From positions 77,378 through 141,377 of the forward strand of contig CAYRRP010000003.1 in assembly GCA_964426735.1 (NCBI GenBank): 64,000 bases of DNA, written 5' to 3'. Below the pieces are notes generated by a model that ran no database searches, had not been told where the DNA came from, and saw only the letters and a list, made by a program, of their open reading frames with translations. Shown here piece by piece: positions 26,694 to 64,000 of the stretch (its first letter is position 1; each line of letters opens with the position of its first letter). A program made the translations under genes and the position numbers. The stretch is from an uncultured Candidatus Saccharibacteria bacterium (GTDB lineage Bacteria; Patescibacteriota; Minisyncoccia; Phycocordibacterales; DATDWN01).

Positions 26694-26754
26694 AGCACAA
26701 TCACTCTATAATACTTTTGTAAAAACCTCGTGTAACGAGGTTTTTACTTGCTTT

Positions 26755-26803
26755 ATTCGTAAAAATTCGTATCATTCGTATATTCGTTAATTCGTATATT
26801 TAT
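26755..26803 (+). promoter_or_regulatory. Array of five ATTCGT(A) heptamers ending in the 14-mer ATTCGTATATTTAT, upstream of tig
   Basis: ATTCGT starts at 26755, 26765, 26774, 26782 and 26790, giving spacings of 10, 9, 8 and 8. The 14-mer at 26790-26803 lies 4 nt before the ATG. Confidence 0.5.
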
Positions 26804-26807
26804 AACT

Positions 26808-40302: not shown

Positions 40303-40409
40303 GTTAAATTGCTCCAGATGCTAGGCGCGAGAAAATTTATGAGTGAACCGTACTTGTAGTACGGTGAATGAATAAATTTGAATCGTAACAACGCAGATGG
40401 AGTAATTTA
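40303..40409. repeat. Imperfect-palindrome intergenic element (close copy of 39031-39139)
   Basis: It is in the same orientation as 39031-39139. I counted 12 mismatches over about 107 aligned nt by hand. Its right end overlaps the stop codon of the recombinase gene. Confidence 0.7.
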
Positions 40410-47506: not shown

Positions 47507-47617
47507 TTTTTACGACTGTATTTCTGAAGAACTTCTTAAGTATACCTAAAGGGATACATCGGTCAACTAGACCTATCCACACAAACTATGGTCAGACTTT
47601 ATGATATAGTAAGCCCC

Positions 47618-49585
47618 ATGGACGCAACGAAAGACTACCTTTCAGGATTGAATGCTAAACAAAAATCTGCGGTACTTACCACAGAAGGCCCGGTACTTAT
47701 CGTAGCAGGCGCAGGAGCAGGGAAAACCAAGACTATAACTCACAGAATACTCCATCTTATAAAAAACGGGGTACACCCCCACAATATTCTCGCGATTACG
47801 TTTACAAATAAAGCAGGAAAGGAAATGCGTGAGCGAGTGGAGCATTTACTTGCCGCTGACCCTATGCTCCGTGCCCAGCACCACAATGCAGCACCTTTTG
47901 TGAGCACGTTCCACTCACTCGGGGTATTTATCATCAAACAATGGGCTGACCGATTGGGACTTCCGAGACATTTTGGTATTTTTGATAAAACAGATTCAAA
48001 AAAAGCACTGAAAAAGGCACTCGAATCACTGAATGTAGAACCAAAAGAACATCTCGATAAAGTAGCAAGTATTATCTCTCGAGAAAAAGGACTTGGAGTA
48101 TCGTACCAAGAATTTGCTTCACGTCAGAGTTATGATTTTACATCTGATATCACTGCTCGTGCATGGAATATATATGAATCAACACTCAAGAAAGAAAAAG
48201 CTCTCGATTTTGATGACCTGCTTCTCAAATCACTCGAACTTCTTGAACAACACCTTGACATACGTACGTATTATCAAAACCTGTGGCACTATGTACATAT
48301 TGATGAATACCAAGATACAAATAAAGTACAAAATAAAATTGCCGAACTGATCTCTGAAAAACATCGTAATATTTGTGTAGTAGGGGATACAGATCAAAAT
48401 ATTTATAGTTGGCGAGGAGCTGAGATCAAGAACATGCTCTCGTTTGAAAAAAAATATACTGATGCTCACGTCATACTGCTTGAGCAAAATTATCGTTCAA
48501 CAAAAATGATTTTGGATGTTGCAAATGATATTATTTCAAAAAATAAATGGCGTATTCCCAAAAAACTTTTCACTGAAAACACCAAAGGGGAAAAGGTGAG
48601 TGTGTATGAAGCATTCAATGAAGTAGACGAGGCTCATTTCATAGCACAAAAAAGTAAAGAGTTAATCGACCAAGGAACATCATCAGATGAAATCGCTGTT
48701 CTTTTTCGCGCGAACTTCCAATCACGAATCCTTGAAGAAGCATTTCTCGCATATGGAGTGTCGTACCAAATGCTTGGGACAAAATTCTTTGAACGTAAAG
48801 AAATTAAAGATATGCTTTCGTATATTAAATCCGCACTCAACCCAGAAAGTAGTATTGATTTGGCACGCATTATCAATGTGCCGCCACGTGGTATTGGTAA
48901 AGTCACACTTGATAAAATAGAAGCTGGCGAATTTGATTCTCTTCCCACTAAAACTCAGGAAAAAATAAGATTATTTAAAGAAATGCTTGCTCGTATTAAA
49001 GATTTTATCCTGAGTCATAAAACCTCCGAATCAATTCGTTTTATTGTGGAAATTTCAGGAATAGCGAAAGCGTACACAGAAGGAAATGACGAGGATCAGG
49101 AACGTCTCGAAAACATTATGGAGCTTGTCACACTTGCAACAGGATATGATGAATTACTTCCAGAAGAAGGTATCGAGATGCTCCTTACTGATGCTGCGCT
49201 TGTATCGGATCAAGACTCTCTTAAAAAAGAAACTTCTGGGGTTAAACTTATGACTGTCCACTCATCCAAAGGACTTGAATTTGATACTGTGTTCATTTCA
49301 GGTATGGAGGAAGGTTTATTTCCTCATCAACGCCTTGGCGAAAAGAAAAAAGAAGGTGAGGATAGCGAAGAAGAACGACGCCTCTTTTATGTAGCAGTCA
49401 CCCGTGCTCGAAAAAAACTCTATCTCACACTCGCTCAAATGCGTACGATTTTTGGAAACAAACAGATTAACACCCCATCTCATTTTATCGGAGATATCAA
49501 TGAAGATTTTCTTGATCATGAAAAGAAAAGTATGCTGGGGCCTATGGGTAATGCAGGCGGGAAGTATTTTAGTATTGATTTCTAG
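47618..49585 (+). CDS. pcrA: UvrD/PcrA-type ATP-dependent DNA helicase
   Basis: It carries AGAGAGKTKT, DEYQDTN, VGDTDQNIYSWRGA, TVHSSKGLEF and VAVTRAR. I prefer ATG 47618 (TATAGT lies 7 nt upstream), and ATG 47588 is the alternative. Confidence 0.93.
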   Translation: MDATKDYLSGLNAKQKSAVLTTEGPVLIVAGAGAGKTKTITHRILHLIKNGVHPHNILAITFTNKAGKEMRERVEHLLAADPMLRAQHHNAAPFVSTFHSLGVFIIKQWADRLGLPRHFGIFDKTDSKKALKKALESLNVEPKEHLDKVASIISREKGLGVSYQEFASRQSYDFTSDITARAWNIYESTLKKEKALDFDDLLLKSLELLEQHLDIRTYYQNLWHYVHIDEYQDTNKVQNKIAELISEKHRNICVVGDTDQNIYSWRGAEIKNMLSFEKKYTDAHVILLEQNYRSTKMILDVANDIISKNKWRIPKKLFTENTKGEKVSVYEAFNEVDEAHFIAQKSKELIDQGTSSDEIAVLFRANFQSRILEEAFLAYGVSYQMLGTKFFERKEIKDMLSYIKSALNPESSIDLARIINVPPRGIGKVTLDKIEAGEFDSLPTKTQEKIRLFKEMLARIKDFILSHKTSESIRFIVEISGIAKAYTEGNDEDQERLENIMELVTLATGYDELLPEEGIEMLLTDAALVSDQDSLKKETSGVKLMTVHSSKGLEFDTVFISGMEEGLFPHQRLGEKKKEGEDSEEERRLFYVAVTRARKKLYLTLAQMRTIFGNKQINTPSHFIGDINEDFLDHEKKSMLGPMGNAGGKYFSIDF

Positions 49586-49664: not shown

Positions 49665-50450
49665 ATGAAAGCTAAAAAGTCACTCGGGCAACATTTCCTC
49701 ACTTCAGAAGCAGCGGTGCATCATATAGTCACCGCATCAGGTGCTAAAAAAGGAGATACGATCCTTGAAATTGGCCCCGGGAAAGGTGTGCTCACTAAGG
49801 CATTACTCGCTACTGGTGCATCTGTCGCAGTGGTAGAAAAAGATGATCGCATGGTACCAGTTTTGTCGGAGACTTTTGTACAAGAAATCAAAGATGGTCA
49901 ACTCACTATTATTCATGGAGATATCTTAACAACCAACATTGAAAAGATACTAAGTGAACCATACTCTGTTGTGGCAAATATTCCGTATTACATTACAGGG
50001 GAAATAATGCGTCTCTTTTTGGAACACAACCACCAACCAAAAAGTATGACATTACTTGTTCAAAAAGAAGTTGCGGAGCGTATTGTTGCTCGCGACAAAA
50101 AAGAAAGTGTACTTTCACTTTCAGTAAAAGCATTTGGCGCACCATCTCTTATATCGGTAGTAAAAAAGGGATCATTTTTTCCAATACCAAACGTTGATTC
50201 TGCCATTATTCATATCGCAGATATTTCGCGAACAAAACTTGGCACAGTATCACCTGAACATTTTTTCGCTGTGGTGAAAACAGGTCTTGCGCATAAGCGA
50301 AAAATTCTTATTTCAAATCTGAAGGACTTATACACAAAAGACACGCTTTCACGTGTCTTTGCAGAACTTTCTTTATCTGAAGATGTACGGGGAGAAGACC
50401 TTGATGTTTCTACATGGATCAACCTTTCCCGTATACTCCAACAGTATTAA
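49665..50450 (+). CDS. rsmA: 16S rRNA dimethyladenosine transferase RsmA/KsgA
   Basis: KSLGQHFL, EIGPGKGVLT and ANIPYYIT. Confidence 0.94.
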   Translation: MKAKKSLGQHFLTSEAAVHHIVTASGAKKGDTILEIGPGKGVLTKALLATGASVAVVEKDDRMVPVLSETFVQEIKDGQLTIIHGDILTTNIEKILSEPYSVVANIPYYITGEIMRLFLEHNHQPKSMTLLVQKEVAERIVARDKKESVLSLSVKAFGAPSLISVVKKGSFFPIPNVDSAIIHIADISRTKLGTVSPEHFFAVVKTGLAHKRKILISNLKDLYTKDTLSRVFAELSLSEDVRGEDLDVSTWINLSRILQQY

Positions 50451-51745
50451 TTGCAAGGTTTTGTCAATGCATCCCAATCATAGTATGCATTGTTGAATGA
50501 TCCGAAAAGGTTTGCATACTCTGTGTTTCCTCCTGCTGTTCCCGGGAGAGATTGTAAATAATTAAACTTTCCTTGATTTTGCCGATTGAGGTCAAGCGCA
50601 TTTGTTGCTGTAAATGAGAAAAGTGGGGGAACATAATACGGATCACTCGGAGTACTGTATGCAAGATTGTTTAACGTAACAGTCCATGTGTTATCGCTGT
50701 TTTTCTTAAACATATATACATATTTACCATTCTTCATACCTGATCGTGGGGCAGAACATGATGAGGTTGAAGTTTGTGTGGTGGTTACTATTGCTGAAGC
50801 AGGCACAATACATGCTGAATTTAGGTATGCTCGAGTTTTTTCTCCCACTACGCCAGTACCTTGAGTAAGTCCGAGGATACTGAGTATTTCAGTTGCATGC
50901 GCCTCCTGGAATCTTTTCACTGCAGTCATTACTGTAGAGTCAAACGTTGATGTAGTTTGATTTAAAAACCCACCCTGCTTAAGCGCATAACTCAATGCAA
51001 ACACATCGTTTCCAGAATTACCAAAAGACAGGTTGTTAGAAAAAGAGTAACACTGAGAGTTTGAGGTTATGTTTATATTTGTTCCGTTTGTTTCCGAAGA
51101 AGTTGCTCTTCTTGTCACAAAACTCCCAATATCAATACCGTATGTATTTTTATACGTATTCACCAAATTAGCATAGAGAGAATTTAATGCGCTTAATAAT
51201 GCAGAAGATGCTCGCGTTGTTACATCTGCTGCAGAAGATTCTTGGTTTTTTGTTGAGCCAACAGAAGATGCTGGCACAGGAAGAGCGCCCTCTGGAGCAG
51301 TACACGTATATGCACCATTTACATAATATGGTGCTTTGCCTCCACACTGAGCAAATGCTTTTCCATAAGCAAGTTCTGTTTTTAAAATATCCCAACCAGG
51401 ATTTACACTCTGGATAATAGCATTTGAACCTGGTGCAGCTGTAAACCCAGCAAGTAAATACGCACCATGTCCTGTAGAACCATTGACTGTACATACTCCA
51501 TTAAGAATATAGTCTTTCCCTGATGTAGGGTCGACAAATCCTGCAAGACCAAGTTGTTCCACCTTACAACTCATATCATACCCAAGCGCCTCTCCCTGAG
51601 CTATAGCTTTATTAACACAATCTTGTGCTGCTACTGGATCTGTACGTATCTCACCTGTACAAGTGCCTGTTGTACTTTGTGCATTAGATAAAGATGGTGC
51701 ACACATCCATACCATTAAAAAACCAAAAAGAAGTATTTTTTTCAT
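50447..51745 (-). CDS. Secreted Cys-rich protein with a peptidoglycan-binding (PG_binding_1-like) domain
   Basis: 432 aa with a signal peptide. It carries DVFALSYALKQGGFLNQTTSTFDSTVMTAVKRFQEAH. Confidence 0.65.
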   Translation of the reverse strand: MKKILLFGFLMVWMCAPSLSNAQSTTGTCTGEIRTDPVAAQDCVNKAIAQGEALGYDMSCKVEQLGLAGFVDPTSGKDYILNGVCTVNGSTGHGAYLLAGFTAAPGSNAIIQSVNPGWDILKTELAYGKAFAQCGGKAPYYVNGAYTCTAPEGALPVPASSVGSTKNQESSAADVTTRASSALLSALNSLYANLVNTYKNTYGIDIGSFVTRRATSSETNGTNINITSNSQCYSFSNNLSFGNSGNDVFALSYALKQGGFLNQTTSTFDSTVMTAVKRFQEAHATEILSILGLTQGTGVVGEKTRAYLNSACIVPASAIVTTTQTSTSSCSAPRSGMKNGKYVYMFKKNSDNTWTVTLNNLAYSTPSDPYYVPPLFSFTATNALDLNRQNQGKFNYLQSLPGTAGGNTEYANLFGSFNNAYYDWDALTKPCN

Positions 51746-51802
51746 AATTTCTGTGAATAATAATTACTGTTGATTATACCACTGTGTTATACTAAAAACA
51801 CC

Positions 51803-52723
51803 ATGACACATCAAAAAGTGTTAGTAACTCTCATTCTATGTGCAGGTCTTATTACCTCTGTTTTCCTTATATCAAAAACAGAAAAATCTAATGAAAAGAG
51901 TGTAAAAAATGATTCTACTCAACAAAACATAAACCTTTTAGCTACAATTGATAAAAAAGCTGATTCTGATACTGACGGAGATGGTTTAAAGGATTGGGAG
52001 GAAAGTCTGATTAACACCAACCCTCAACTCAAAGATACTGATGATGATGGTACGTCAGACGGAGATGAAGTGGTTCAAAACCGAGATCCTCGAAAAAAAG
52101 CTCCAAATGACAAAAATATCACTCAAAACACAATAACAGAATCCACCTTAACAGATGAAACTCTTACCGAAAGGGTGTCGAGAGACTTTTTTAGTCGATA
52201 TTTAATCGCAAAACAACAAAACATAGATATTACGCCGGAGGAAGCATCTGTGATTGCACAACAAGTAGTCGCAAATATTCCAGGCACTATTGAGGTAAAA
52301 GCATACGGAATAAAAGATATTGTGATTACACCTAACAACTCAGAACAAAGCAGGCTTGCATATGCAAAACAAATGAGTGACATATTGGTTAATAACTCAC
52401 CTCAATTCACAGAAAATAGCTTGGAAATTGTCGGGCGTATCATACAAAACCCTACCGAAAACGACAAAAAGAAACTTGCAACTATCCTCGCAAGCTATAA
52501 AACAATTCTTTCTAAGACGCTTGCGATAGCTGTACCAAGTACAGTTGTACCTGAGCACCTTGTATATATCAACACATTATCTTCAATTTATTCAAACTTG
52601 GCTGAAATAGAGCAAATGACGGTTGATCCAATCAAAGGATATGTAGCATACTCACATTATTCCAATTTTCTCATCAAAATATCAATTGCATTTGAAAATC
52701 TCAAGAAAGCTTCAGGTGTCTAG
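51803..52723 (+). CDS. Membrane-anchored protein with thrombospondin-type-3-like Ca-binding repeats
   Basis: DSDTDGDGLKDWEE and DTDDDGTSDGDE. The start is set at ATG 51803. Confidence 0.6.
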   Translation: MTHQKVLVTLILCAGLITSVFLISKTEKSNEKSVKNDSTQQNINLLATIDKKADSDTDGDGLKDWEESLINTNPQLKDTDDDGTSDGDEVVQNRDPRKKAPNDKNITQNTITESTLTDETLTERVSRDFFSRYLIAKQQNIDITPEEASVIAQQVVANIPGTIEVKAYGIKDIVITPNNSEQSRLAYAKQMSDILVNNSPQFTENSLEIVGRIIQNPTENDKKKLATILASYKTILSKTLAIAVPSTVVPEHLVYINTLSSIYSNLAEIEQMTVDPIKGYVAYSHYSNFLIKISIAFENLKKASGV

Positions 52724-52800: not shown

Positions 52801-54114
52801 ATGTTGTACCCCTCATTTTTCTCAAAAAAAGTACTGTCAAGTGTTTTAATGCTCTGCCTCATATTACCCTTTGGTTTTCTCTTTAATCCAACAACAGCAA
52901 ATGCCCAATGGGTAGTATGGGATCCAGGTAATAATGCAACTGCAGTAGCAGGATGGGCATCAATGATCCCAAACACAACTGCAAACGTAATTAACACAGT
53001 CAAAGAACAAGGTCTTGATGCAATCGGGTATATTATTGCAAAGGCAGTATTAAGTAAAATGACTGCATCCACTGTAAACTGGATTAACACAGGCTTTCAA
53101 GGTAACCCAAGTTTCCTTACAGACCCCGAGAGATTTTTTGGAAATATTGGAGACCAAGTCGCTACTCAGTATTTATTAGGAGCAAATTCTCCATTAAACC
53201 AACTCTGTAGCCCTTTTAAAGCAGAGGTGCGTCTTGCATTGGTTAAAAACTATCTTCAAGAAAACACTTTTCAGTCACAATGTACCTTTTCTGCAATCGG
53301 GGCAAATTTTGAAAGTTTTACCCGAGACTTTACTCAAGGAGGGTGGGATGCTTGGTTTACCATGACCCAGCAAGATCAAAACAACCCCTATGGTGCATAT
53401 CTACAAGCAAAACAACAGCTTTCATTACAAATTGGAACTCAACAAAATAAATATCAAACACAAGTTGCAAATGGTAATGGCTTTCTTTCTTATGAACGTT
53501 GCCGTCGGGACTACATACCTCCGGCAAATGTTGCAAATAGACAATGTATAAAATATGAACCTCTTACTGTAGGAGGAGGAGAGCCAAAGTGTCTGGCATA
53601 CGAGATAGCTGATCCGAATGGTCTTGGTTATGATGACTGCCCTGCATCAGAAAAAGAAGTAGTGACCCCAGGAAGTGTAATCAATGAACAACTTGGTAAA
53701 GCTCTTGGTTCGAGTTTTGCCCAACTCGAAGCTGCAGATGAGCTTAATGAAATTGTAAATGCACTGATGGTACAACTTGTGAATAAAACATTTAGTAGTA
53801 TAGGAAATGGTCTTCGTGGTTTGAGCTCTTCAAATTCTACAAATACAAAAAGTGCAACTCAACAACTCCAAGATGCTGTTAATACTTCCAGCTCTGAACT
53901 TGGATTAGATACAGTAGTAACTACAACACAAGCACTACAGAATGCAGCTAATACAATCCCTACAGAATTTCAACCTGGATCAACTTCCCAAACTCCTGAC
54001 CCTGCAGCAATACAAAGGGCAGTAGATGAAGAGACTGAACGTTTTAGACAGCAATACTGCGCCCAAAATCCAGCAAATTGTCCCTCAAATACAAACGGTA
54101 ACGAAAATCCTTAG
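52801..54114 (+). CDS. Secreted protein, first gene of the T4SS-like cluster (function unknown)
   Basis: 437 aa with a signal peptide ending ANAQ. TATACT lies 6 nt before the ATG. It is Q/N-rich with a helical C-terminus. Confidence 0.6.
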   Translation: MLYPSFFSKKVLSSVLMLCLILPFGFLFNPTTANAQWVVWDPGNNATAVAGWASMIPNTTANVINTVKEQGLDAIGYIIAKAVLSKMTASTVNWINTGFQGNPSFLTDPERFFGNIGDQVATQYLLGANSPLNQLCSPFKAEVRLALVKNYLQENTFQSQCTFSAIGANFESFTRDFTQGGWDAWFTMTQQDQNNPYGAYLQAKQQLSLQIGTQQNKYQTQVANGNGFLSYERCRRDYIPPANVANRQCIKYEPLTVGGGEPKCLAYEIADPNGLGYDDCPASEKEVVTPGSVINEQLGKALGSSFAQLEAADELNEIVNALMVQLVNKTFSSIGNGLRGLSSSNSTNTKSATQQLQDAVNTSSSELGLDTVVTTTQALQNAANTIPTEFQPGSTSQTPDPAAIQRAVDEETERFRQQYCAQNPANCPSNTNGNENP

Positions 54115-54120
54115 TATTCC

Positions 54121-56484
54121 ATGAAATCTGTCGCACAAAAAATCCTTATAACATTTGGTTTTATCACACTTATAACACTAAGTGTGATTCCTGTTTCTGT
54201 ATCAGCTGATCGTGCTGCGTATGAAGCGTGTGCCGCAAATGCAGGAGATGATCCTTCAGTATGTAATCATTTATTAACAGAAAATGAGGCTCAAACAGGA
54301 AAATCAAATCTCTCAGTAGGTGGAGTTGTTGGTGGTGCGATAAGTGGATTGTTTGATATACAAGGAGCTTTTTTGCGCGTACCACTCTTTCTCATCATGA
54401 AGATTGCTGCTGCACTACTCGGGATGGCTGGACTTTTACTCGATGAAGTGATGGTACGTACAGTAGTACACATGTCTGATGAAATCGGGAAAATTACCGC
54501 CATCAATGATGTATGGAGGATTATCAGGGATCTTGTAAACATGTCTTTTATTTTTATCCTCTTGTACCACGGTATTCGTATGGTACTCGGCCTCAGTGAC
54601 GCTGGTGTAAAGAAAATCATCGCAGGTATTGTTACCACTGCAATACTTATAAACTTTAGTCTATTGTTTACTAAAGTTATTATTGACGCATCAAACGTCG
54701 TTACGCTTGGTTTTTATAATTCAATTAGCGCAGCAGGAGGGACAGCAAAAGGGGATGAGTTTGCTGGAAAATACAATTTTGGTTTTTCAGGAGCTTTTAT
54801 GAAACCTCTTGGTATCACTGGTGCTTTCGACCCCTCAGGGCTTTCTCAAGCTACAAACTTCACGTTTGGAGAAAATGGAAACATGGTGATTATCTACCTT
54901 GGCAGTATTGTATTTATGCTTATTACCATTTTTATTTTTATGGCTGTAAGCGTATTCTTTATCATTCGTTTTGTTGCCTTCATCATACTCCTTATTATGT
55001 CACCAGTGGCATTCCTTTTTATTGCTCTTCCTGGTTTAGACAATCTGAAATCAAAATATTGGGGCACACTTTCTGGTCAAGCTCTTTTTGGACCATTGTA
55101 TATGTTTTACTCATGGCTTGTTTTACGACTCATGGGTCCTGGAGGTCTTGGTTCTTCAGATTATACCTTGGGGTATGCTTTAATGAACCCGAATAAAGAT
55201 ACGATATCGGTGATTATTAACTTTATTATACTTATCGGACTTCTTGTTACATCAGTTATTGAAGCAAAAAAACAAGCAACAAGCGGAGGCATAATCAGCA
55301 CAAAAATACTCGATAAAGGAACAGGTTATTTGGGAAGTGCTATTTTTGGAGGAGCTTCTATGCTCGGAAGGTCAACATTGGGTAGAGTTGGTCAAAAAAT
55401 ATCAGAAAATGATGATTTAAAGAAAAGAGCTGCCGATGGTGGAAAGTGGGCTCGCCTACAACTACTTGCAGGGAACAAACTAGCGTCATCGTCTTTTGAC
55501 GCGCGAAACACTAAAGTGATGGAGCTAGCTAGTAAAGATGTTACTGGTTTAGGAGCAATTGCTAATTTTGGTAAAGCAATTAATACAAAAGGGTATCGAG
55601 GGTATGTTGAAGAAAAACTAAAAGCTGACGCGGAATCAGACAAAGCAAGAAATGCTCAATTTAAAATGTCTGATGAACAAAAAAACATAAATAAACAAAA
55701 ATTAAAAGACTATGAAGCCAGTGGAGATGAAGCAAAGAAGAAGAAAGAACATATCGAAGCACTTACTGCCCAAATCGAAGCCGAGGAAAATGCTCTTGGT
55801 ATACCTGCATTAAATAAAAAAATTACTGAACTTACAGAGACAAAGAAAGCCACAGATGAGCAGAAAAAGAAAACTGATCAAGAAATTACTAACCTTGAAA
55901 AACAAATAAAAGAAACTATTCTTCCCGAAGAGCAGCAGCGCCTCAAAAACATTCTTCTTGAAAAGAAAAAAGTTGCTGATGATATTGAAAATACTGCAAA
56001 AGAAATAGCTACTCAACTTGTTCAAGAAAATGCCAAATATGAAGAAATTAAGAAAACAAGTGATTACAGAGATATTCAGGAAAAAATTAAAAATCGCACA
56101 GAGGAAGAAAAGTTCTACATATCTTCTGAATATGAAAAGCTTATTAGTTTAGCAGATGACAAGAAGGGTAATAAAAACCCAAGAATCAACGCTATTGAAA
56201 GAGAAGGCGATAGACGAATTAAAGCATACGCAAATAGGTTGGAGAAAAAAAGTGGTGTATTGAGTGGATTTCCAAATATTATTATTGATAAAGATTACAC
56301 TAAACGTAGAGCTAGTGTAATACGCAAACTTGCAAATGCTGAAAGACCTGAGGCTAATCTAAAAAAAGCATTAAAAGAATTTAAATTTATCGATGAGGAA
56401 GAAAATGAAGAGAAGTCTAAAGAAAAAAAAGATGATGATAAAAAAGAAGAATCAAAAACAACCCCTCCACCTTCAACACCTTAA
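54121..56484 (+). CDS. Polytopic membrane protein, VirB6/TrbL-like by topology and context, with a long K/E-rich coiled-coil tail
   Basis: 787 aa with at least 6 TM helices in residues ~60-390, followed by a ~350-aa charged coiled coil. The assignment rests on architecture and neighbourhood only. Confidence 0.55.
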   Translation: MKSVAQKILITFGFITLITLSVIPVSVSADRAAYEACAANAGDDPSVCNHLLTENEAQTGKSNLSVGGVVGGAISGLFDIQGAFLRVPLFLIMKIAAALLGMAGLLLDEVMVRTVVHMSDEIGKITAINDVWRIIRDLVNMSFIFILLYHGIRMVLGLSDAGVKKIIAGIVTTAILINFSLLFTKVIIDASNVVTLGFYNSISAAGGTAKGDEFAGKYNFGFSGAFMKPLGITGAFDPSGLSQATNFTFGENGNMVIIYLGSIVFMLITIFIFMAVSVFFIIRFVAFIILLIMSPVAFLFIALPGLDNLKSKYWGTLSGQALFGPLYMFYSWLVLRLMGPGGLGSSDYTLGYALMNPNKDTISVIINFIILIGLLVTSVIEAKKQATSGGIISTKILDKGTGYLGSAIFGGASMLGRSTLGRVGQKISENDDLKKRAADGGKWARLQLLAGNKLASSSFDARNTKVMELASKDVTGLGAIANFGKAINTKGYRGYVEEKLKADAESDKARNAQFKMSDEQKNINKQKLKDYEASGDEAKKKKEHIEALTAQIEAEENALGIPALNKKITELTETKKATDEQKKKTDQEITNLEKQIKETILPEEQQRLKNILLEKKKVADDIENTAKEIATQLVQENAKYEEIKKTSDYRDIQEKIKNRTEEEKFYISSEYEKLISLADDKKGNKNPRINAIEREGDRRIKAYANRLEKKSGVLSGFPNIIIDKDYTKRRASVIRKLANAERPEANLKKALKEFKFIDEEENEEKSKEKKDDDKKEESKTTPPPSTP

Positions 56485-56493
56485 TTAATTACC

Positions 56494-57159
56494 ATGGAAG
56501 AAGCACTTCAAGAAATAAAAGAATCACTCAAGACACTCCCTTCACATATACGTGAGGTTGTTACTCAAACAAACTGGGAGCCAAAAATAGAAGAGCTTGC
56601 TTTGAAGTATTCACTCACCAACGAACAAAAGCGTGCGTTATTTATTGAGGTATTACTTGTCCTTGTTGCAATAAACCCAGAAGAGGAGATTGTGGAAAAT
56701 ATCGAAAATGAACTCGGTGTTTCTACAATACTTGCTGAACAACTCGCCGAAGAAGTGGGGGAGCGTGTATTTTCTTGGATATATAAACTATATACAGAAA
56801 AAGCAGAGCAACACACACACAACGGAGCGCCTAAACAACCAATCAACACCCTTGATACTCCTCCACCAAACCTTCCAGGGGAAATAATCGAGGATCTTCC
56901 ACTTCCTCCAGTGGATCAAGAACCTTTATTTGCAAAAACTCAACAACGCCCACTACGAGACACTGTTGCGGACTTTTTTGCAAAACCAGAACCTATCGAG
57001 ACTCCAGTTATAGAACCAACCTCTCTACCAAAACCAGAGTCCGCAAACACAACTTCGACATTTATTAGTAAAAAACTAAGTCAACCAAGCACCATATCTA
57101 CACCGTCACGTACACCACAATCATATACTGTTGATCCGTATCGAGAACCGGTTGAATAG
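56494..57159 (+). CDS. Hypothetical protein with a Pro-rich C-terminus
   Basis: 221 aa with no motif. Confidence 0.55.
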   Translation: MEEALQEIKESLKTLPSHIREVVTQTNWEPKIEELALKYSLTNEQKRALFIEVLLVLVAINPEEEIVENIENELGVSTILAEQLAEEVGERVFSWIYKLYTEKAEQHTHNGAPKQPINTLDTPPPNLPGEIIEDLPLPPVDQEPLFAKTQQRPLRDTVADFFAKPEPIETPVIEPTSLPKPESANTTSTFISKKLSQPSTISTPSRTPQSYTVDPYREPVE

Positions 57160-57175
57160 ATTTACCATTATATTT

Positions 57176-57607
57176 ATGAGATTCCAAGTACCACAATTTA
57201 TTGAAATAGAAGATAAAATCGTAGGACCACTGACGCTTAAGCAGTTTTTGTATCTCGCTGGATCAGTAGGTATGTCAATTATTGCATATCGTTTTCTTCC
57301 ACTTATTGTAGCGATTATTGTGATTGCATGTGTTGGTTCACTTGGTATAGCTCTCGCATTTTTTAAGTACAATAACAAACCTTTTATCGACCTTCTTGAA
57401 TCAGGTGTACAGTATTACTTGGGAGAAAAACTATACATTTGGAAAAAAAGGGAGCGGGTTGTTGAAAAACAAAATACTGCTGATAAAAATCCTGCTCAAG
57501 TATATGTACCTCGTTTATCTGACAGTAAACTTAAAGAGCTCACCTGGAGCTTAGATATTAAAGAAAATCAAAACCCAGTTACTCGGGAAGAAAGTAGATT
57601 AAAGTAA
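57176..57607 (+). CDS. PrgI-family (VirB3-like) small membrane protein
   Basis: MRFQVPQFIEIEDKIVGPLTLKQFLYLAGSVG followed by two TM helices matches the PrgI pattern. The start is set at ATG 57176. Confidence 0.7.
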   Translation: MRFQVPQFIEIEDKIVGPLTLKQFLYLAGSVGMSIIAYRFLPLIVAIIVIACVGSLGIALAFFKYNNKPFIDLLESGVQYYLGEKLYIWKKRERVVEKQNTADKNPAQVYVPRLSDSKLKELTWSLDIKENQNPVTREESRLK

Positions 57608-57679
57608 AAGGATTACAGAATAATTCTTATTCATTAATCCTACTACCTTAATCATTAATCAATCTGGTATACTATTCTT

Positions 57680-58318
57680 ATGGCTATTCCTTCTAAAGCA
57701 ACACAAGATTTTGTACCTATCAAAGAAATACGTGATGGGGTAGTACTGCTCAAAGATAATTCTATGCGTGCCGTACTCCTCGCATCTTCTTTAAACTTTT
57801 CTCTTAAATCAGAAGATGAGCGAAAAGGTATTTTATACCAATTTCAAGATTTTCTTAACTCACTTGATTTTCCACTTCAAATCTTTATCCAGTCACGAAG
57901 ACTTGATATTAGACCATATATTGCTCTTCTTGAAGGTCGGTATAAAGAACAGATGAATGATTTGATGAAAATTCAAACTCAAGAATACATTGAATTTATT
58001 AAAAAGTTTACTGAGTCGACCAATATTATGACAAAAAGTTTCTTTGTGGTTGTTCCATACACTCCCGCACTGATCCAAGGAAAAGGTATAGATCCTACAA
58101 GTTTTTTTGGCAAGAAAGATGCGGATGATGCTGTAAAAAAACGCATGGTGAATTTTGAAGAAAACAAGACTCAGCTCGAACAAAGAATGGCAATCGTGGA
58201 ACAAGGACTTGTACGTTGTGGAATCAGAGTGGCACGTCTTGGAACAGAAGAAGTGGTAGAATTATTTTATAAAATATTTAATCCAGGAGAAACAGAAAAA
58301 CCAATCCAAGTGAGCTAA
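57680..58318 (+). CDS. Stand-alone VirB4 N-terminal-region homolog (first part of a split Gram-positive-type VirB4)
   Basis: TQDFVPIKEIRDGVVLLKDNSMRAVLLASSLNFSLKSEDERKGILYQFQDFLNSL resembles the extreme N-terminus of PrgJ/Tn916-Orf16-type VirB4 proteins. This is from my recollection and was not searched. Confidence 0.6.
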   Translation: MAIPSKATQDFVPIKEIRDGVVLLKDNSMRAVLLASSLNFSLKSEDERKGILYQFQDFLNSLDFPLQIFIQSRRLDIRPYIALLEGRYKEQMNDLMKIQTQEYIEFIKKFTESTNIMTKSFFVVVPYTPALIQGKGIDPTSFFGKKDADDAVKKRMVNFEENKTQLEQRMAIVEQGLVRCGIRVARLGTEEVVELFYKIFNPGETEKPIQVS

Positions 58319-58440
58319 CTATACGAATATGCGAATGAAAAACTTACGAATAACCACGAATACAGAAAATCAAAATGTTTTTTATTCGTATACATTCGTA
58401 GATTCGAATTATTTGTATATTCGTATATTTATTTAAAACT
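58319..58440. repeat. Imperfect palindrome built from 4 ACGAAT and 4 ATTCG(T) units, ending in the 14-mer ATTCGTATATTTAT
   Basis: TATACGAATAT...CTTACGAAT...ACGAATA faces TATTCGTATACATTCGTAGATTCGAAT...ATATTCGTATA. The 14-mer lies at 58419-58432, 8 nt before the ATG. Confidence 0.7.
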
Positions 58441-60246
58441 ATGGGACTATTTGATTTTTTACAAAAAAAAGAAGAGCCGTCAATATCTTCTATCATCCCT
58501 CAGGAGATTTACCAAGCAGGTACACTTGAACTGCAGGATATTATCGCACCAAGTGCGTTAAAAATTTCACCAAAAGAAATAAATCTTGGGGAAAAGGTGC
58601 TTCGTAGTTTTTTTGTAATCTCTTATCCTCGATTTCTTGGAGAAAACTGGTTCTCTCCAATCATTAACCTCGATAAAGTATTTGATATTGCTATTTTTGT
58701 ACACCCTATTGAAACATCCGATGTACTTCGTACATTTCAAAAAAAAGTAGCTGAGGTACAAAGTCAGATTATGGAACGTGAGAGTAGGGGACAAGTACGA
58801 AACCCGATGCTTGATACCGCATATCAAGATCTTGAAAACCTCCGTGACCAACTTCAACAAGCACAAGAGAAACTTTTTGATGTTGGTTTATATATCACCA
58901 TGTATGGAGATAATGAAGCGGAGCTTGATAAGATGGAATCAGAAATAAAATCTATTCTTGAATCAAAGCTTGTATATGTAAAACCAGCTCTCTTCCAACA
59001 AGAACAAGCGTTTAAAACAGTACTTCCTTTAGGAACTGATCAGCTTGAGGTTCATAGTAAGCTAAATTCTTCTCCACTCTCAAGCCTTTTTCCTTTCATA
59101 TCTTTCGACCTTACCTCAGATAAAGGTATCTTATATGGGATTAACCGACACAACTCATCACTTGTATTATTTGACCGTTTTTCACTTGAAAACTATAACT
59201 CAATTACTTTTGCAAAATCAGGTTCGGGTAAATCATATGCAACAAAACTCGAAATCCTTCGAACACTTATGTTTGATACATCAGTAATGGTTATCGACCC
59301 TGAAAATGAGTACGAGTACATGGCTGAAGCAGTAGGGGGAAGATACTTTAAAATATCGTTAAACTCAGAGCATCATATAAACCCTTTTGATCTTCCTATA
59401 CCCAATGAAGATGAATCTGCTGCGAGTGTTCTTCGAAGCAATATTATAAACTTGGTAGGGCTTTTCCGTATTATGCTTGGGGGGCTCACACCAGAAGAAG
59501 ATGCGATTGTAGATCGAGCTATCACCGAAACATACGCGCTCAAGGACATAACTCCGGACTCAGACTTCAAAAATATCGAGCCGCCACTTCTTTCTGATTT
59601 TGAAATGGTACTCTCTGGTATGGAAGGTGGAGAATCTCTTGCTCAACGTCTTACAAAATATACCAAAGGTACATGGGCTGGTTTTATCAACCGACCAACC
59701 AACATTGATATTAATAAAAAATTCATCGTCTTCTCAGTGCGAGATATGGAAGACGAGCTTAAGCCGATTGCAATGTATATTATTATGCATTATATCTGGG
59801 CTGCAATCAGAAAGGAACTAAAAAAACGTCTTCTTGTTATTGATGAAGCGTGGTGGATGATGAAATCTGAAGATACTGCTTCATTCCTTTTGTCGTTGGC
59901 AAAACGAGGACGAAAATACTTCCTCGGACTAGCGACAATCACTCAAGACGTGGATGACTTCCTTAAATCTCCGTACGGAATGCCGATTATTACAAACTCT
60001 TCTATACAAATACTTCTCAAACAATCACCGACTTCAATGGATAAACTCCAGCAAACATTTAACCTCACTGATGAAGAAAAATATCTACTCCTTGAGTCTG
60101 ATGTAGGGGAGGGAATCTTCTTTGCAGGACTCAAACACGTAGCAATCAAGATTATTGCTTCATATACTGAAGACCAGATCATCACTTCAGATCCATCTCA
60201 GATCCTTGCTATCAAAAAAGCAAAAAACGACTTACTTTCTTCTTGA
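58441..60246 (+). CDS. virB4: VirB4/TrbE-family T4SS ATPase
   Basis: 601 aa. It has Walker A FAKSGSGKSY, Walker B LLVIDEAWWMM, and a conserved pre-ATPase region (FFVISYPRFL...). Confidence 0.88.
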   Translation: MGLFDFLQKKEEPSISSIIPQEIYQAGTLELQDIIAPSALKISPKEINLGEKVLRSFFVISYPRFLGENWFSPIINLDKVFDIAIFVHPIETSDVLRTFQKKVAEVQSQIMERESRGQVRNPMLDTAYQDLENLRDQLQQAQEKLFDVGLYITMYGDNEAELDKMESEIKSILESKLVYVKPALFQQEQAFKTVLPLGTDQLEVHSKLNSSPLSSLFPFISFDLTSDKGILYGINRHNSSLVLFDRFSLENYNSITFAKSGSGKSYATKLEILRTLMFDTSVMVIDPENEYEYMAEAVGGRYFKISLNSEHHINPFDLPIPNEDESAASVLRSNIINLVGLFRIMLGGLTPEEDAIVDRAITETYALKDITPDSDFKNIEPPLLSDFEMVLSGMEGGESLAQRLTKYTKGTWAGFINRPTNIDINKKFIVFSVRDMEDELKPIAMYIIMHYIWAAIRKELKKRLLVIDEAWWMMKSEDTASFLLSLAKRGRKYFLGLATITQDVDDFLKSPYGMPIITNSSIQILLKQSPTSMDKLQQTFNLTDEEKYLLLESDVGEGIFFAGLKHVAIKIIASYTEDQIITSDPSQILAIKKAKNDLLSS

Positions 60247-60363
60247 GATACGAGGCGAGAGATTTGAGATAAGAGATATGAAAGATACACCGCTTTTTTC
60301 TCATATCCCTTCGTAAGGTTCAACCTTTACTCAACCACGTAACTTCTATACCATTATCTATAT

Positions 60364-60741
60364 ATGGATACTGAACTCGAACAAATACGCGAACAAAACA
60401 GATATAAACCAAACGATACCAATCAACAATATACTCCTCCCACAAATATACCTCCCAATACAGCAACGTGGATGTTGGCAACTGCTGGTTTTATCGACGG
60501 ATTACAAGCACTAATCACTCTTACTGGAGTAGGTGCTATTATTAACCCTTTTGTGAGTATATTTGCAGCGATTTTATTTTGGTTCTGGTTTAAGATATAT
60601 AATGTATCTTTACTTACATGGCAAAGAATGCTTACGTTTATGTTTGGTGGTGTACTTGAAGCAATACCTGTTGTTGATGCATTACCTGGTTGGTATGGAA
60701 TAGTGTGGAGAATTATACAAACTACAAAAACATCTTCGTAA
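60364..60741 (+). CDS. Hypothetical small membrane protein
   Basis: 125 aa with 2-3 TM helices. Confidence 0.55.
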   Translation: MDTELEQIREQNRYKPNDTNQQYTPPTNIPPNTATWMLATAGFIDGLQALITLTGVGAIINPFVSIFAAILFWFWFKIYNVSLLTWQRMLTFMFGGVLEAIPVVDALPGWYGIVWRIIQTTKTSS

Positions 60742-60799
60742 CCTTTACTGTTAACAACCGTTACCTCTTTTCTATACGGTTTATGATAAAATATGTGTA

Positions 60800-61810
60800 A
60801 TGATTTTTCGTTATATTACACAATTATCTTTTTTATGTTTACTATTTTTTTGTGTACCATTTATAGGAAATACACAATTGATTGGTATAACAAACAACGA
60901 TGTTTCTATTGGAGTTTCTCCAGAAAACCCGGGGCCATATAGTGTAGTTTCTGTAACAATAGAAACGTATTCGTTCGACCTTGATAACTCGAATACACGA
61001 TGGTATGTAAATGATGTTTTAGCACAAGAAGGTAAGGGGCTCAAAACGCTTACATTCGATACCGGCAAACTTGGCAAACCTATGGTAATAAAAGTTGTTA
61101 TAGATTCCACTAAAGGAACACTTACCAAAGACCTCACTATTGTCCCAAGTACAGTAAATATTCTTTGGGAAGCACAAACATATACTCCACCATTCTTTAA
61201 AGGTAAATCTTTATTTTCACATCAAAGTAGCGTCGTATTTTTTGCCCAACCGGAACTTATTTCAAATGGGAAAGTTTTAAATTCATCGAACCTTGTATAC
61301 ACATGGAGTAAAGACGGGGTTGTACTTGGTAGTGCAAGTGGGTACGGAAAACAAAGTCTCACCCTTACAGGTTCTGTTATTTCTCGTCCACTCCGTATAT
61401 TCGTAGACGTAACTGATCCAAATACCAATATTTCTGGTTCAGGTGTTATTACAGTAAATCCTATAGAACCTGAAATTCTTACGTATGTTGTACATCCATT
61501 ATATGGTATCCAATACGAAAAAGTGATAACAAAAACCCTCCCTTTGTCCGGAAAAGAGGTTACTCTTCGAGCAGAACCTTATTATTTCAACTCTGTAGAT
61601 AAAAATACATTAGGTAAATTAGCGTACAACTGGTCTATTAATGGCAACGTTATTTCTGACGGACAAAATACACAGACACGAGTTTTCAGAAAGGTAGGGG
61701 ATGTGTTTGGTTTATCAAATATAGGCATTACTGTAAATAACGATTCCAAACTATTACAATTTGCATCATACCAGCTCGCTATTGATTTTCTAAAAGATCG
61801 ATCTGAATAA
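60800..61810 (+). CDS. Secreted beta-rich protein
   Basis: 336 aa with an N-terminal signal or anchor. TAAAAT lies 7 nt before the ATG. Confidence 0.6.
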   Translation: MIFRYITQLSFLCLLFFCVPFIGNTQLIGITNNDVSIGVSPENPGPYSVVSVTIETYSFDLDNSNTRWYVNDVLAQEGKGLKTLTFDTGKLGKPMVIKVVIDSTKGTLTKDLTIVPSTVNILWEAQTYTPPFFKGKSLFSHQSSVVFFAQPELISNGKVLNSSNLVYTWSKDGVVLGSASGYGKQSLTLTGSVISRPLRIFVDVTDPNTNISGSGVITVNPIEPEILTYVVHPLYGIQYEKVITKTLPLSGKEVTLRAEPYYFNSVDKNTLGKLAYNWSINGNVISDGQNTQTRVFRKVGDVFGLSNIGITVNNDSKLLQFASYQLAIDFLKDRSE

Positions 61811-61813
61811 TTT

Positions 61814-62746
61814 ATGAAAAAAATTTTTTATACATCACTTCTTATATGCACCGCTCTCGTTGGTACTTTTGTGTATGCACAAACACCTTCAACTACCGAA
61901 CCAATCACCGGAGAATACACCGTTCTTGCCCCTATACCTGGCACAACAAAAACTTGTACCGGAAGTGGTGCAGATGAAAAATGTACTGCCGATATAAATT
62001 CTTACTTAAACGGTTTTCTTGGTGTGATAATTAGTATTGGAGCAATTATTGCTATGCTTTATATTGCATATTATGGCTTCCAGTATGCTATCTCAGACAG
62101 CGCTTCTTTGAAAATGGAATCTAAAGGAAAATTATTTGAAATTATGGGTGGTCTAGTTCTTATTATTTCTGCATACGCAATTGTATACACTATTAACCCC
62201 AAAATACTTCCAGAAGGTGGCTTATCTCTTGATATTAGCGTTCCTCGTATAAACTCTCAAACACCGATGGTTTCTGGTGGTAATGGTGGTATGCGAACCA
62301 CATTTACAACAAATCCTGATCCTGCAGGAGATAAAGTGGTGCGCGATAGATTAATAAACAATACAGGTATATCAATTAACAGAACAAACCCTTGTACACC
62401 AACTCAACGCACAGGTTGTACTTCTTTAACTGCTTTACCTGAAGTCGCTATCACAGGAGTTCTTACCTTAAACAAAGAGTGCCAGTGTAATTTAATAATA
62501 ACAGGAGGTACAGAGACACTCCCTCATAACGGTGGAGTTAATACTGAACACGGCCCAGGTTTATCTGTTGTCGATCTCAACCCTTCAGCAAAACTAAATT
62601 CATACCTTGGAAAACCAAACCCTCAAGAAAGAGACAGGGTTTCAAAAACTATCAATGGTAGAGAGGTAATCTTTATTTTTGAAAAAGCTGGTGGGAATGC
62701 ATCTCATTCATCAACAGGAGATCATTGGCATGTTCAATTTAAATAA
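61814..62746 (+). CDS. T4SS-pilin-like (VirB2/TrbC-type two-helix) N-domain fused to a LAS/M15-like metallopeptidase C-domain
   Basis: It has a signal peptide, then two hydrophobic helices (FLGVIISIGAIIAMLYIAYYG, LFEIMGGLVLIISAYAIVY). The C-terminus carries TEHGPGLSVVDL (HxxGxxxD) and GDHWHVQF. Confidence 0.6.
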   Translation: MKKIFYTSLLICTALVGTFVYAQTPSTTEPITGEYTVLAPIPGTTKTCTGSGADEKCTADINSYLNGFLGVIISIGAIIAMLYIAYYGFQYAISDSASLKMESKGKLFEIMGGLVLIISAYAIVYTINPKILPEGGLSLDISVPRINSQTPMVSGGNGGMRTTFTTNPDPAGDKVVRDRLINNTGISINRTNPCTPTQRTGCTSLTALPEVAITGVLTLNKECQCNLIITGGTETLPHNGGVNTEHGPGLSVVDLNPSAKLNSYLGKPNPQERDRVSKTINGREVIFIFEKAGGNASHSSTGDHWHVQFK

Positions 62747-62748
62747 TT

Positions 62749-63954
62749 ATGATAAAAAAAATCCTTAAAATAAGCGCATATGTACTTATTGCACTTGCAT
62801 GTGCACTTCTTGGGTATTATTTTATAATTTCAACAAATGATGGTGGTGGGGCAAATAAAAAACCTTTTTTTGCTAATCTATTTCCTTTTGGAAACAACCC
62901 AACAGTAGTATCTGAACTCCCATTTGCAACAACTACAGAAACCACTTCTGATGAGCCATCTACAGGTAATGTAGATCAAGTGATGCGTTTAATATCAAAC
63001 GAACCTGTAGCAGGAAGTGTTTTTATAGAAACACAAAGAGGGGACATTGTTCGTTATATAGAGAAGGCAACTGGTCATATTTACGATGTTCCTACATTTG
63101 AAAACACAGTTTCTCGTATTTCAAATACAACGATTCCTCAATTATATACAGCAAAATTTACTGAAAACGGATCTGGTTTTATCACTCAATATATAAAAGA
63201 TGATAATTCTCTCGAAACATTGTACGGAAAAATAATAAGTACCTCTACAGAACAAACAGTTACAGGGACGATTCTTTCTAAAAAGATTATGTCTTTTGAT
63301 ATATCTCCAAACGGAAAAACTGTCTTTACGTTAGAAACTACACAAAATGGGAGTGAGGGATATATATCAACTCCTAATGGGACAAACAAAAAACTTATAT
63401 GGACATCACCTCTACGAGAACTTATTCCTCAATATACTTCAGATACCCATATTGGATTACAAACAAAACCTCATTCTTCTGCCTATGGTATATTATTTGA
63501 TGTTGATACGAACACCTCAGCAAAAAAAATACTTGTGTCAAACCATAAAAATCTCACGACACTGCCATATATAAACAAGAATTATATTTTGTATTCAAAT
63601 ACAATCGGATTATTTACCATAAATACCACTACGGGTGTTTCAGAAGAACTTTCTCCAAACACATTTGCTGAAAAATGCGTATGGGCACACACCAAAGCAT
63701 TTGTATACTGTGCAGTTCCGCAAACAACATTAAATTCTAATTCACTGTATGCGTGGTACAAAGGAGAATTATCTTACTCTGACACTATTTGGGAATATGA
63801 TATAGAGAAAAATACCGCTCGAGAGTTGGTAAATCCTGTAGATGTCGGTGGAAGAGCTGTTGATATATCTTCTATCTCTATAAATAAAAGTGGCACACTA
63901 CTTTTAATTCAAAGTAAAACCGATGGAAGTTTGTGGACAATTAAAGTTAATTAA
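62749..63954 (+). CDS. Membrane-anchored beta-rich (propeller-like) protein
   Basis: 401 aa with an N-terminal TM segment and repeated beta-strand-rich segments. Confidence 0.6.
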   Translation: MIKKILKISAYVLIALACALLGYYFIISTNDGGGANKKPFFANLFPFGNNPTVVSELPFATTTETTSDEPSTGNVDQVMRLISNEPVAGSVFIETQRGDIVRYIEKATGHIYDVPTFENTVSRISNTTIPQLYTAKFTENGSGFITQYIKDDNSLETLYGKIISTSTEQTVTGTILSKKIMSFDISPNGKTVFTLETTQNGSEGYISTPNGTNKKLIWTSPLRELIPQYTSDTHIGLQTKPHSSAYGILFDVDTNTSAKKILVSNHKNLTTLPYINKNYILYSNTIGLFTINTTTGVSEELSPNTFAEKCVWAHTKAFVYCAVPQTTLNSNSLYAWYKGELSYSDTIWEYDIEKNTARELVNPVDVGGRAVDISSISINKSGTLLLIQSKTDGSLWTIKVN

Positions 63955-63979
63955 AAAAACGACATATGTCGTTTTTTAA
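63953..63979 (+). terminator. Intrinsic terminator closing the T4SS-like cluster
   Basis: AAAAAACGACAT|ATGTCGTTTTTT is a perfect palindrome. Confidence 0.8.
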
Positions 63980-64000
63980 TTAACTTTTTCGTATATGTTT

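Follow-up and report, generated by a model that had tools for sequence, protein, structure and literature searches.

A probably chromosome-fixed, non-conjugative type IV secretion system locus beside the replication origin of Paceibacteria

Type IV secretion systems (T4SSs) of Patescibacteria were surveyed across 3,035 genomes by Quinonero-Coronel et al. 2025 (PMC12102498). The sections of that study drawn on here place the Patescibacteria VirB4 proteins in a monophyletic clade nested in MPF-FATA, with TrsD adjoining virB4 and PrgI/VirB3, VirB6 and VirB2-like pilins encoded near it. They report that just 103 genomes have relaxases, that VirD4-like genes, although common, are rarely near virB4, and that the Paceibacteria T4SS is located near dnaA, dnaN, rnpA, rpmH and ksgA. 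In Southlakia epibionticum the T4SS cluster, which is without recognisable coupling or relaxase proteins, is essential in co-culture (Wang et al. 2023, PMC10633639); T4SS genes including TrsD, PrgI, VirB6 and pilins are essential for its epibiotic growth, and comEC is dispensable (PMC10633639; PMC12857230). T4SS-like tubular structures penetrating the host, together with RNA uptake, have been described for a cultured member (bioRxiv 10.64898/2026.06.21.733656), and reviews discuss the import of host nucleic acids. Here we analyse a T4SS gene cluster in a 64,000-nt stretch (the window) of contig CAYRRP010000003.1 from an uncultured Candidatus Saccharibacteria bacterium. The cluster occupies window positions 52801-63954 on the + strand, and its open reading frames (ORFs) are labelled g1-g10, with g0 just upstream. 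We regard it as very probably the Paceibacteria version of the chromosomal Patescibacteria-clade T4SS, a cluster found next to the origin in nearly all Paceibacteria, which are ultra-small bacteria that depend on a host. The explanation as a whole we regard as likely: a non-conjugative T4SS, fixed near the origin, that serves exchange dependent on host contact.

A scan of one genome per species gave 577 confirmed relatives, and the best 80 loci by VirB4 similarity were taken with 10-kb flanks. The cluster lay at the same chromosomal site in all 80 species-level loci. Wherever the contig was long enough, the order in essentially all of them was uvrD-ksgA-(PG-binding gene)-g0-g1-g2-g3-g4-g5-g6-(g7)-g8-g9-g10-yidC(-)-rnpA(-)-dnaA-dnaN-PBP(-), where PG is peptidoglycan and PBP a penicillin-binding protein. 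Because order and site are the same across these 80 genomes, the comparison indicates a locus that has a fixed place in the chromosome next to the replication origin and is passed on vertically, rather than an integrative and conjugative element (ICE).

The flanks of the window copy have the same composition. UvrD/PcrA (47588-49585) and KsgA (49665-50450) are encoded upstream. Window positions 59838-64000 are shared, with 0 mismatches over 4163 nt, by a Logan contig that encodes the exact g10 protein; beyond the window edge this contig carries yidC(-), rnpA(-), rpmH(-), dnaA, dnaN, a PBP gene, a class-I tRNA synthetase gene, ruvC, yebC and ruvB; the downstream flank is the chromosomal origin region. 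Neither a relaxase nor a VirD4/type IV coupling protein (T4CP) turned up in the cluster ORFs, in the twenty other large window ORFs scanned for families or in the 10 kb downstream, and the surroundings of the cluster showed neither flanking direct repeats nor an oriT-like structure. A first-pass annotation of this DNA had described the flanks as chromosomal housekeeping genes rather than an ICE, which uvrD and ksgA upstream and yidC-rnpA-rpmH-dnaA-dnaN downstream bear out. It had also seen neither a relaxase nor a coupling protein; this stands for the neighbourhood but does not extend to the genome, given that, in the part of the literature used here, most such genomes are reported to carry VirD4-like genes at other positions. 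The relaxase and coupling protein with ICE boundaries that it had named as evidence to the contrary were looked for downstream and were absent.

Family scans of the window proteins used Pfam and NF-model profiles, with scores set against curated cutoffs. The clearest assignment was that of g6 (58441-60246, +; 601 aa), a VirB4 ATPase body of the CD1110/MPF-FATA type. It matched the VirB4 CD1110 family NF045971 over model positions 179-733 (E = 2.4e-112, 376.6 bits, cutoff 325) and P-loop_TraG PF19044 (E = 8.6e-28), and its Walker A motif (GSGKS, residue 258) and Walker B motif (VIDEAW, residue 464) were kept in 86/88 copies. Homologs numbered at least 8000 at E <= 1e-10. Among the matches listed (120), they were ~600 aa long (one partial) and 84-100% identical, the nearest at 94-100% and the remainder at 84-89%; those with names were almost all labelled Parcubacteria, Paceibacteria, Minisyncoccota or Patescibacteria, and two were labelled Nitrospira. 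The 80 loci likewise all come from metagenome-assembled genomes of this kind. The protein g6 is the predicted motor of the system.

The ORF upstream, g5 (57680-58318, +; 212 aa), is a stand-alone VirB4 N-terminal domain of TrsD/TraC-like type. It matched NF045975 (E = 1.7e-12) and TrsD NF041427 (E = 3.5e-5), both below curated cutoffs, and positions 2-117 of the CD1110 model; its orthologs match PF26593 (TraC-like). The two pieces were separate ORFs, with g5 upstream, in 78/78 loci where both were located, and the spacer between them, 122 nt in the window (58319..58440, +), was usually -4 to +16 nt in related loci. Because the split is present in every one of these loci and the spacer is mostly this short, it is best read as an ancestral two-gene arrangement and not as a frameshift or lesion.

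PrgI/VirB3-type proteins of known systems anchor VirB4 to the membrane. The protein of this type here is g4 (57131 or 57176-57607, +; 158 or 143 aa), which matched PrgI PF12666 (E = 2.7e-9, 37.9 bits, cutoff 27) and, weakly, TcpE; it has two transmembrane (TM) segments by hydropathy, and its orthologs are 142-144 aa long and carry PF12666. In the polytopic g2 (54121-56484, +; 787 aa), residues 8-380 hold six or seven hydrophobic segments, and a predicted cytoplasmic tail of ~390 aa follows that is rich in lysine and glutamate (K/E; K+E 17%). Among its orthologs, TrbL/VirB6 was matched in 3/36 (best 6e-5), TrbL_4 in one, and TrbL_3 weakly in the ortholog of locus L003.

Conservation differed sharply along the cluster. 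Median identity was 81.8% for g6 (VirB4-C), 66% for g5 (78 loci) and 53% for g4 (76 loci), against 63% for DnaA, 50% for DnaN, 48% for YidC, 54% for UvrD, 49% for KsgA, 55% for the PBP and 32% for RnpA. For g0, g1, g2, g3, g7, g8, g9 and g10 it was 26-34%, a contrast with VirB4 that is somewhat inflated by choosing the 80 loci on VirB4 similarity. The alignments clearly point to a motor under very strong constraint and to surface parts that are fast-evolving and modular. Variable surface parts (g0, g1, g8, g9, g10) are what would be expected of proteins in contact with a host.

Among the unassigned genes the most informative is g9 (61814-62746, +; 310 aa), a T4SS pilin module with an extracellular domain. 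A signal peptide is followed by a pilin hairpin at residues ~58-127, and a linker connects this hairpin to a globular, extracellular domain at ~170-310. In its AlphaFold2 (AF2) model, which had a predicted local distance difference test score (pLDDT) of 80 overall, the two-helix hairpin scored about 90 or above and the compact C-terminal domain (C-domain) above 90. Matches of the window copy were sub-threshold (TrbC, E = 4e-4, 21 bits; T4SS_pilin, E = 0.011; Mbov_0395, E = 4.1e-8, 32.8 bits, cutoff 40), and PF18895 (T4SS pilin) was found in 44/47 orthologs, with a best E of 3.8e-12. By these profiles, residues ~58-127 are assigned to a VirB2/TrbC-type T4SS pilin module.

A profile of the g9 C-domain matched 2307 clusters (50% identity) among 1.84 billion proteins, and in nearly all of the best matches the domain was preceded by an N-terminal region of ~150 aa. 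PF18895 was present in 68 of 91 sampled relatives, with SLT also in 2. The residues C194, C202, E234, H238, H246, D254, H304 and H306 are invariant, and the spacing of H246, D254, H304 and H306 is motif-compatible with a LAS/M15 zinc peptidase (H-x(3-7)-D, H-x-H). A tblastn search of the C-domain against phage genomes gave no match. Among 61 positional orthologs of g9, 23 ended in a similar H-x-[HDS] strand, 34 had other extensions and 4 were a bare pilin; two close relatives carried Glucosaminidase (PF01832) in place of the window-type C-domain. These alignments suggest that the g9-type pilin module carries a swappable extracellular C-terminal domain. In the relatives P0250, P0265, P0254, P0262 and P0266 we observed the same pilin module and C-terminal domains that differ by lineage; the C-termini seen on this module were the Cys/His/Asp domain, Glucosaminidase, an 'EAWPP...HFS' type, coiled-coil, Cys-rich tails, or none.

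The second feature of this kind is g3 (56494-57159, +; 221 aa). In the ortholog alignment it has a helical N-terminal domain of ~110 aa, a Pro-rich linker of freely varying length and an invariant C-terminal DPYRE(P) motif. In 71 loci the final six residues of the ORF at the g3 position include DPYRE, and the window holds no other in-frame copy. Hydropathy gave no convincing TM segment and the family scans no match; g3 is probably cytoplasmic. The DPYRE(P) tail resembles a short docking peptide, which makes g3 a candidate docking or adaptor protein. A bolder idea, which we consider unlikely, combines the two features: the Paceibacteria VirB2-type pilin would carry a lineage-specific, exchangeable extracellular enzyme or binding domain, be it the window-type Cys/His/Asp domain, a glucosaminidase, a form with SLT or another, and g3 would be a dedicated DPYRE(P) docking or recruitment factor that replaces the missing cluster-encoded coupling protein. 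If that were true, the T4SS stalk or pilus would itself be the tool cutting into the host wall.

How the locus might work can be outlined from what is encoded together: a two-piece VirB4 (g5 and g6), a PrgI/VirB3 (g4), a putative VirB6-like protein (g2) and the pilin-module protein g9, accompanied by six further conserved genes (g0, g1, g3, g7, g8 and g10), four of which encode envelope or surface proteins. Such a locus would derive from a conjugation machine of the monoderm (MPF-FATA) type, which would have turned into a fixed core locus and lost its role in plasmid or ICE transfer. By analogy with known T4SSs, VirB4 would dock on VirB3 and VirB6 in the membrane and drive the extraction of g9 and its assembly into a stalk or pilus-like conduit, while the exposed domains of g9, g1, g8, g10 and g0 would bind the host cell wall and open it locally. 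As the literature on relatives suggests, the machine would be needed for host-attached growth and would move macromolecules between host and epibiont. A contact-dependent, non-conjugative role in host interaction is quite likely, in line with the proposal of the first-pass annotation that this is a host-interaction or exchange apparatus rather than a conjugation system, which the flanks, the synteny and the missing nearby transfer genes support. Within such a role, import of host cytoplasmic material (nucleic acids) is the possibility that we would tentatively put forward, export of effectors or hydrolases is rather doubtful, and a function in attachment or as a pilus only is improbable.

Several points weigh against this reading, in addition to the selection of loci on VirB4 similarity. 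Experiments exist for no Paceibacteria system, and the essentiality data come from Saccharimonadia, a different class with other accessory genes. According to the part of the survey used here, most Patescibacteria genomes have VirD4-like genes away from virB4, and a distal coupling protein may serve the machine. The protein g2 may be an extended VirB6-like channel subunit, and its topology fits, but the family matches are weak and confined to a minority of orthologs, the window copy had no Pfam match, and its PDB profile search returned coiled-coil noise only. Likewise, a metal-dependent wall hydrolase in the g9 C-domain is an unconfirmed candidate. Peptidase_M15_4 was matched weakly, in 2/13 and 3/91 relatives (best E = 0.0015); three fold searches with the full-length g9 model gave generic helical-hairpin matches only; PDB profile searches with g9 and with its C-domain gave nothing significant; and aligning the C-domain profile with E. 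coli DdpX and MepK in hhalign gave a negative result, single-sequence templates being a weak test. The "peptidase" label that g9 had been given on first inspection was accordingly not confirmed.

Two other readings take the locus as part, or as the remains, of a conjugation system. If it were an ordinary conjugative element (an ICE or integrated plasmid), its relaxase, coupling protein and boundaries would have to lie just outside the window. The VirB4 family CD1110 is named for conjugative transfer, a tyrosine recombinase gene is present at 40407-41393, and the GC content of the cluster is slightly lower (0.35-0.38 vs about 0.40). However, the 10 kb downstream hold origin-region housekeeping genes, uvrD and ksgA stand between recombinase and cluster, the site is identical in 80 species-level genomes, the cluster lacks flanking repeats, and VirB4 is conserved above DnaA, the opposite of what is expected of a mobile element. 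We rejected this reading on synteny and flanks and consider it highly improbable. A decaying conjugation remnant, in which the VirB4 split is a frameshift and the unassignable ORFs are junk, would account for a VirB4 in two ORFs of different frames, 122 nt apart, and for the lack of a family match in more than half of the proteins. Yet the split is universal and usually translationally coupled, its pieces are conserved at 66% and 82% with the Walker motifs intact, and for each of the accessory ORFs, dozens of species have a full-length ortholog. A pseudogenised VirB4 was rejected on these conservation data, and the chance that the locus is such a remnant seems close to negligible.

The remaining readings accept a functional machine and give it other work. 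A T4SS for DNA uptake (competence), comparable to ComB of H. pylori or archaeal Ced and feeding ComEC to scavenge nucleotides, would suit the lack of a nearby relaxase or coupling protein, the presence of ComEC, RecJ, ComM and type IV pilus genes in the same window, a weak partial CedB match, and the import idea raised in the part of the literature that we used. In S. epibionticum, however, comEC is dispensable and the T4SS essential, so that the two are not obligatorily coupled (PMC12857230). The CedB match (NF041017) is a partial P-loop match of 33.5 bits against a cutoff of 700, and no ComB7-10 or CedA homologs were seen. We hold uptake in this form to be quite unlikely; it is also a sub-case of import within the preferred explanation rather than a true alternative to it. 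A housekeeping envelope machine that serves the cell's own surface (protein secretion or assembly, or wall remodelling at division) instead of host contact would fit the position beside yidC and the origin, the universal presence of the locus, and the wall-related neighbours PG_binding_1 (50447-51745) and M23+LysM (46328-47506). Against it, no T4SS is known with such a role, and fast-evolving, modular, adhesin-like surface parts fit partner recognition better. Essentiality in Saccharibacteria was seen in host co-culture, the sole growth condition, and so does not discriminate between this role and host dependence (PMC10633639). We judge a housekeeping role very unlikely and retain a host-contact T4SS as the preferred explanation.

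The other accessory genes were assigned with less precision. Just upstream of the cluster, g0 (51770..52723, +) is the eleventh co-oriented ORF and encodes a membrane-anchored protein with a bacterial TSP3 (calcium-binding) repeat (PF18884, TSP3_bac; 30.7 bits, cutoff 25) and a hydrophobic anchor at residues 17-35. BLAST orthologs of g0 occupy the same position in 43/80 loci. Because it is co-oriented and conserved just upstream, g0 is probably the first gene of the cluster, with a true start at an ATG near 51804. The secreted g1 (52801-54114, +; 437 aa) has a DUF4141-like N-terminus. Its DUF4141 match scored 27.4 bits, under the cutoff of 30, and 4/41 orthologs match DUF4141. A core of ~300 aa is conserved, and ortholog C-termini vary (Ig-like, F5/8-C (discoidin), InlB-repeat, metallophosphatase); all 249 homologs came from Patescibacteria-type sources. 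DUF4141 proteins are encoded beside traJ (VirB6-like) in Bacteroides conjugative transposons, and g1 likewise adjoins g2. The AF2 model of g1 was poor (pLDDT 60, predicted TM-score 0.34) and unfit for a fold search; a VirB5-like or adhesin role is possible.

For the small membrane protein g7 (60364-60741, +; 125 aa), which has 2-3 hydrophobic segments, the window copy and three orthologs gave no family match; BLAST orthologs were found in about 23-29 loci at 32% identity. The secreted, beta-rich g8 (60800-61810, +; 336 aa) was present in 76/80 loci. It has a signal-like N-terminus, W68, W169 and W278 are invariant in the ortholog alignment, and matches were weak: BiPBP_C (5/41 orthologs), Ig_3, PKD_3 and Hoc Ig domains (E = 0.0057). 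Three Ig/PKD-like repeats probably make up the protein, and a Y-x-W-x-x-(N)G motif occurs in each of them. The final gene, g10 (62749-63954, +; 401 aa), encodes an extracellular protein with an N-terminal TM anchor (residues 8-26) and has full-length orthologs in 61-64 loci at ~29% identity. Weak propeller signals (PD40, DPPIV_N and DUF5050 in orthologs; TolB, E = 0.17) suggest that it is probably a beta-propeller. PDB profile searches with g1, g2, g8 and g10 gave nothing significant.

Ten ORFs of 125-787 aa lie inside 52801-63954, all on the + strand, with intergenic spacing of 2-122 nt, and a hydropathy scan placed signal peptides or anchors on g0, g1, g8, g9 and g10. Positions 63943-63988 form a near-perfect palindrome with flanking A and T runs (a 10-pair stem and a T-run), which reads as a terminator acting in both directions, on g10 (+) from one side and on the convergent yidC (-) from the other. 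An Rfam search of the cluster found no RNA element. The 122-nt g5-g6 spacer contains an ATTCGTA/TACGAAT inverted repeat, possibly an internal promoter or operator and maybe shared with the trigger factor gene. Blocks of the same repeat were seen upstream of g6 (58319-58440) and of the trigger factor gene (26750-26807), and also at 15045 and 63988; TTCGTATA has 10 occurrences in the window against 2.1 expected. Much of the first-pass parts list survived this analysis. The short spacers, the strong terminator, the membrane and secretion calls, the PrgI/VirB3-like protein (PF12666 above cutoff in g4), the split VirB4 (g5 and g6 covering separate stretches of one VirB4 model, a natural split), the weakly recognisable pilin-like part (PF18895 in the orthologs of g9) and the secreted 336-aa beta protein (g8) were all recovered. 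Its count of eleven genes requires g0, which lies just outside the cluster range. For its polytopic VirB6-like protein the topology and the K/E tail stood, but not a family match of the window copy, and for its membrane-anchored propeller-like protein the anchor of g10 stood, the propeller having weak family matches only.

Beyond the cluster, the scanned window ORFs comprised ComEC, RecJ, PilB, PilC, a pseudopilin, RNase Y, a CCA-adding enzyme, ComM, NusA, trigger factor, PGK, TIM, a trypsin-like protease, M23+LysM and a XerC/D-like recombinase, and three were without a Pfam match. A competence/type IV pilus toolkit lies within 50 kb of the T4SS: ComEC, RecJ, a pseudopilin with CarboxypepD_reg, PilC, PilB and ComM (6751-8307, 9129-10874, 17983-22940 and 44202-45758). 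The type IV pilus/ComEC uptake genes listed at first inspection are among them, as ComEC, PilB, PilC and the pseudopilin. A gene divergent from the cluster (50447-51745, -) encodes a secreted, Cys-rich PG_binding_1 protein of 432 aa (E = 1e-4), with BLAST homologs in ~14/80 loci; a TIG + PG_binding_1 gene is found at the same place in locus L006. A LysM + Peptidase_M23 wall hydrolase (46328-47506, -) is encoded 5 kb upstream of the cluster, beyond uvrD, and a LysM + M23 combination has been reported for some Patescibacteria VirB1-like proteins. Between the XerC/XerD-like tyrosine recombinase (40407-41393, -) and the cluster lie ComM, the M23 peptidase, UvrD and KsgA; because these housekeeping genes separate the two, the recombinase is not an ICE integrase for the T4SS locus. 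Records of many related metagenome-assembled genomes, L012, L013 and L016 among them, bear the title 'uncultured Candidatus Saccharibacteria', yet their VirB4 is 80-85% identical to that of Zambryskibacteria/Paceibacteria-type genomes, with which they are also fully syntenic. Because of this identity to Zambryskibacteria-type genomes, the titles look unreliable.

Set beside known machines, the locus shares with H. pylori ComB, the cited precedent for import, a T4SS without relaxase or coupling protein that has been put to a use other than conjugation. ComB, in contrast, has the diderm VirB2-4, 6-10 set, and no sequence relation beyond the level of the VirB4/VirB3/VirB6 families was seen here. 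For the archaeal Ced system there was no CedA-like match, and the CedB match was partial. The likeness to MPF-FATA conjugative T4SSs (pGO1/pSK41 Trs, pCF10 Prg/Pcf, CTn2/CD1110), as far as the sources used describe them, lies in the VirB4 family, PrgI, a putative VirB6-like protein and the lack of an outer-membrane core, and pGO1 has the same split TrsD + VirB4 layout. Those systems reside on plasmids or ICEs with relaxase, T4CP and oriT and, in the same sources, have surface adhesins and no VirB2-type pilins, whereas the locus here has a pilin module and a fixed place in the chromosome, with no transfer genes in view. The T4SS of Southlakia epibionticum ML1 (SEML1_0006-0019, PMC10633639) is closer: it too has monoderm-type subunits with pilins and no recognisable relaxase or coupling protein in the cluster, and it lies at the chromosome start; wall-hydrolase functions are associated with its virB4. 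It belongs to the class Saccharimonadia, its six small pilins form an array and diverge in sequence, and its peptidase and lysozyme are encoded by genes of their own, whereas here one pilin-module gene carries a fused domain; essentiality has been established for S. epibionticum only.

Closest of all is the Patescibacteria-clade T4SS as described in the sections of PMC12102498 used here. The likeness covers a VirB4 of MPF-FATA ancestry, an adjacent TrsD-like piece, PrgI/VirB3, a putative VirB6-like protein and a VirB2-like pilin, the lack of a relaxase or T4CP nearby, and a position next to dnaA, dnaN, rnpA, rpmH and ksgA; there is no essential difference. In those sections we found no description of a pilin fused to variable C-domains, of the g3 DPYRE(P) or of the conserved g0/g1/g8/g10 surface proteins. 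In this huge radiation of bacteria, most of them uncultured, few conserved machines face the host; the system is one of these and the leading candidate for the means by which such cells obtain what they need from a host. Systems of this kind had been described before, in 2023-2025, and what may be new is the swappable outer domain of g9 and the DPYRE(P) tail of g3. Rather than a new kind of system, the locus is a clean reference for Paceibacteria, syntenic throughout, with precisely listed parts and a motor ATPase more strongly conserved than DnaA, in which the g9 pilin fusion with its swappable outer domain and the invariant g3 tail offer experimental handles.

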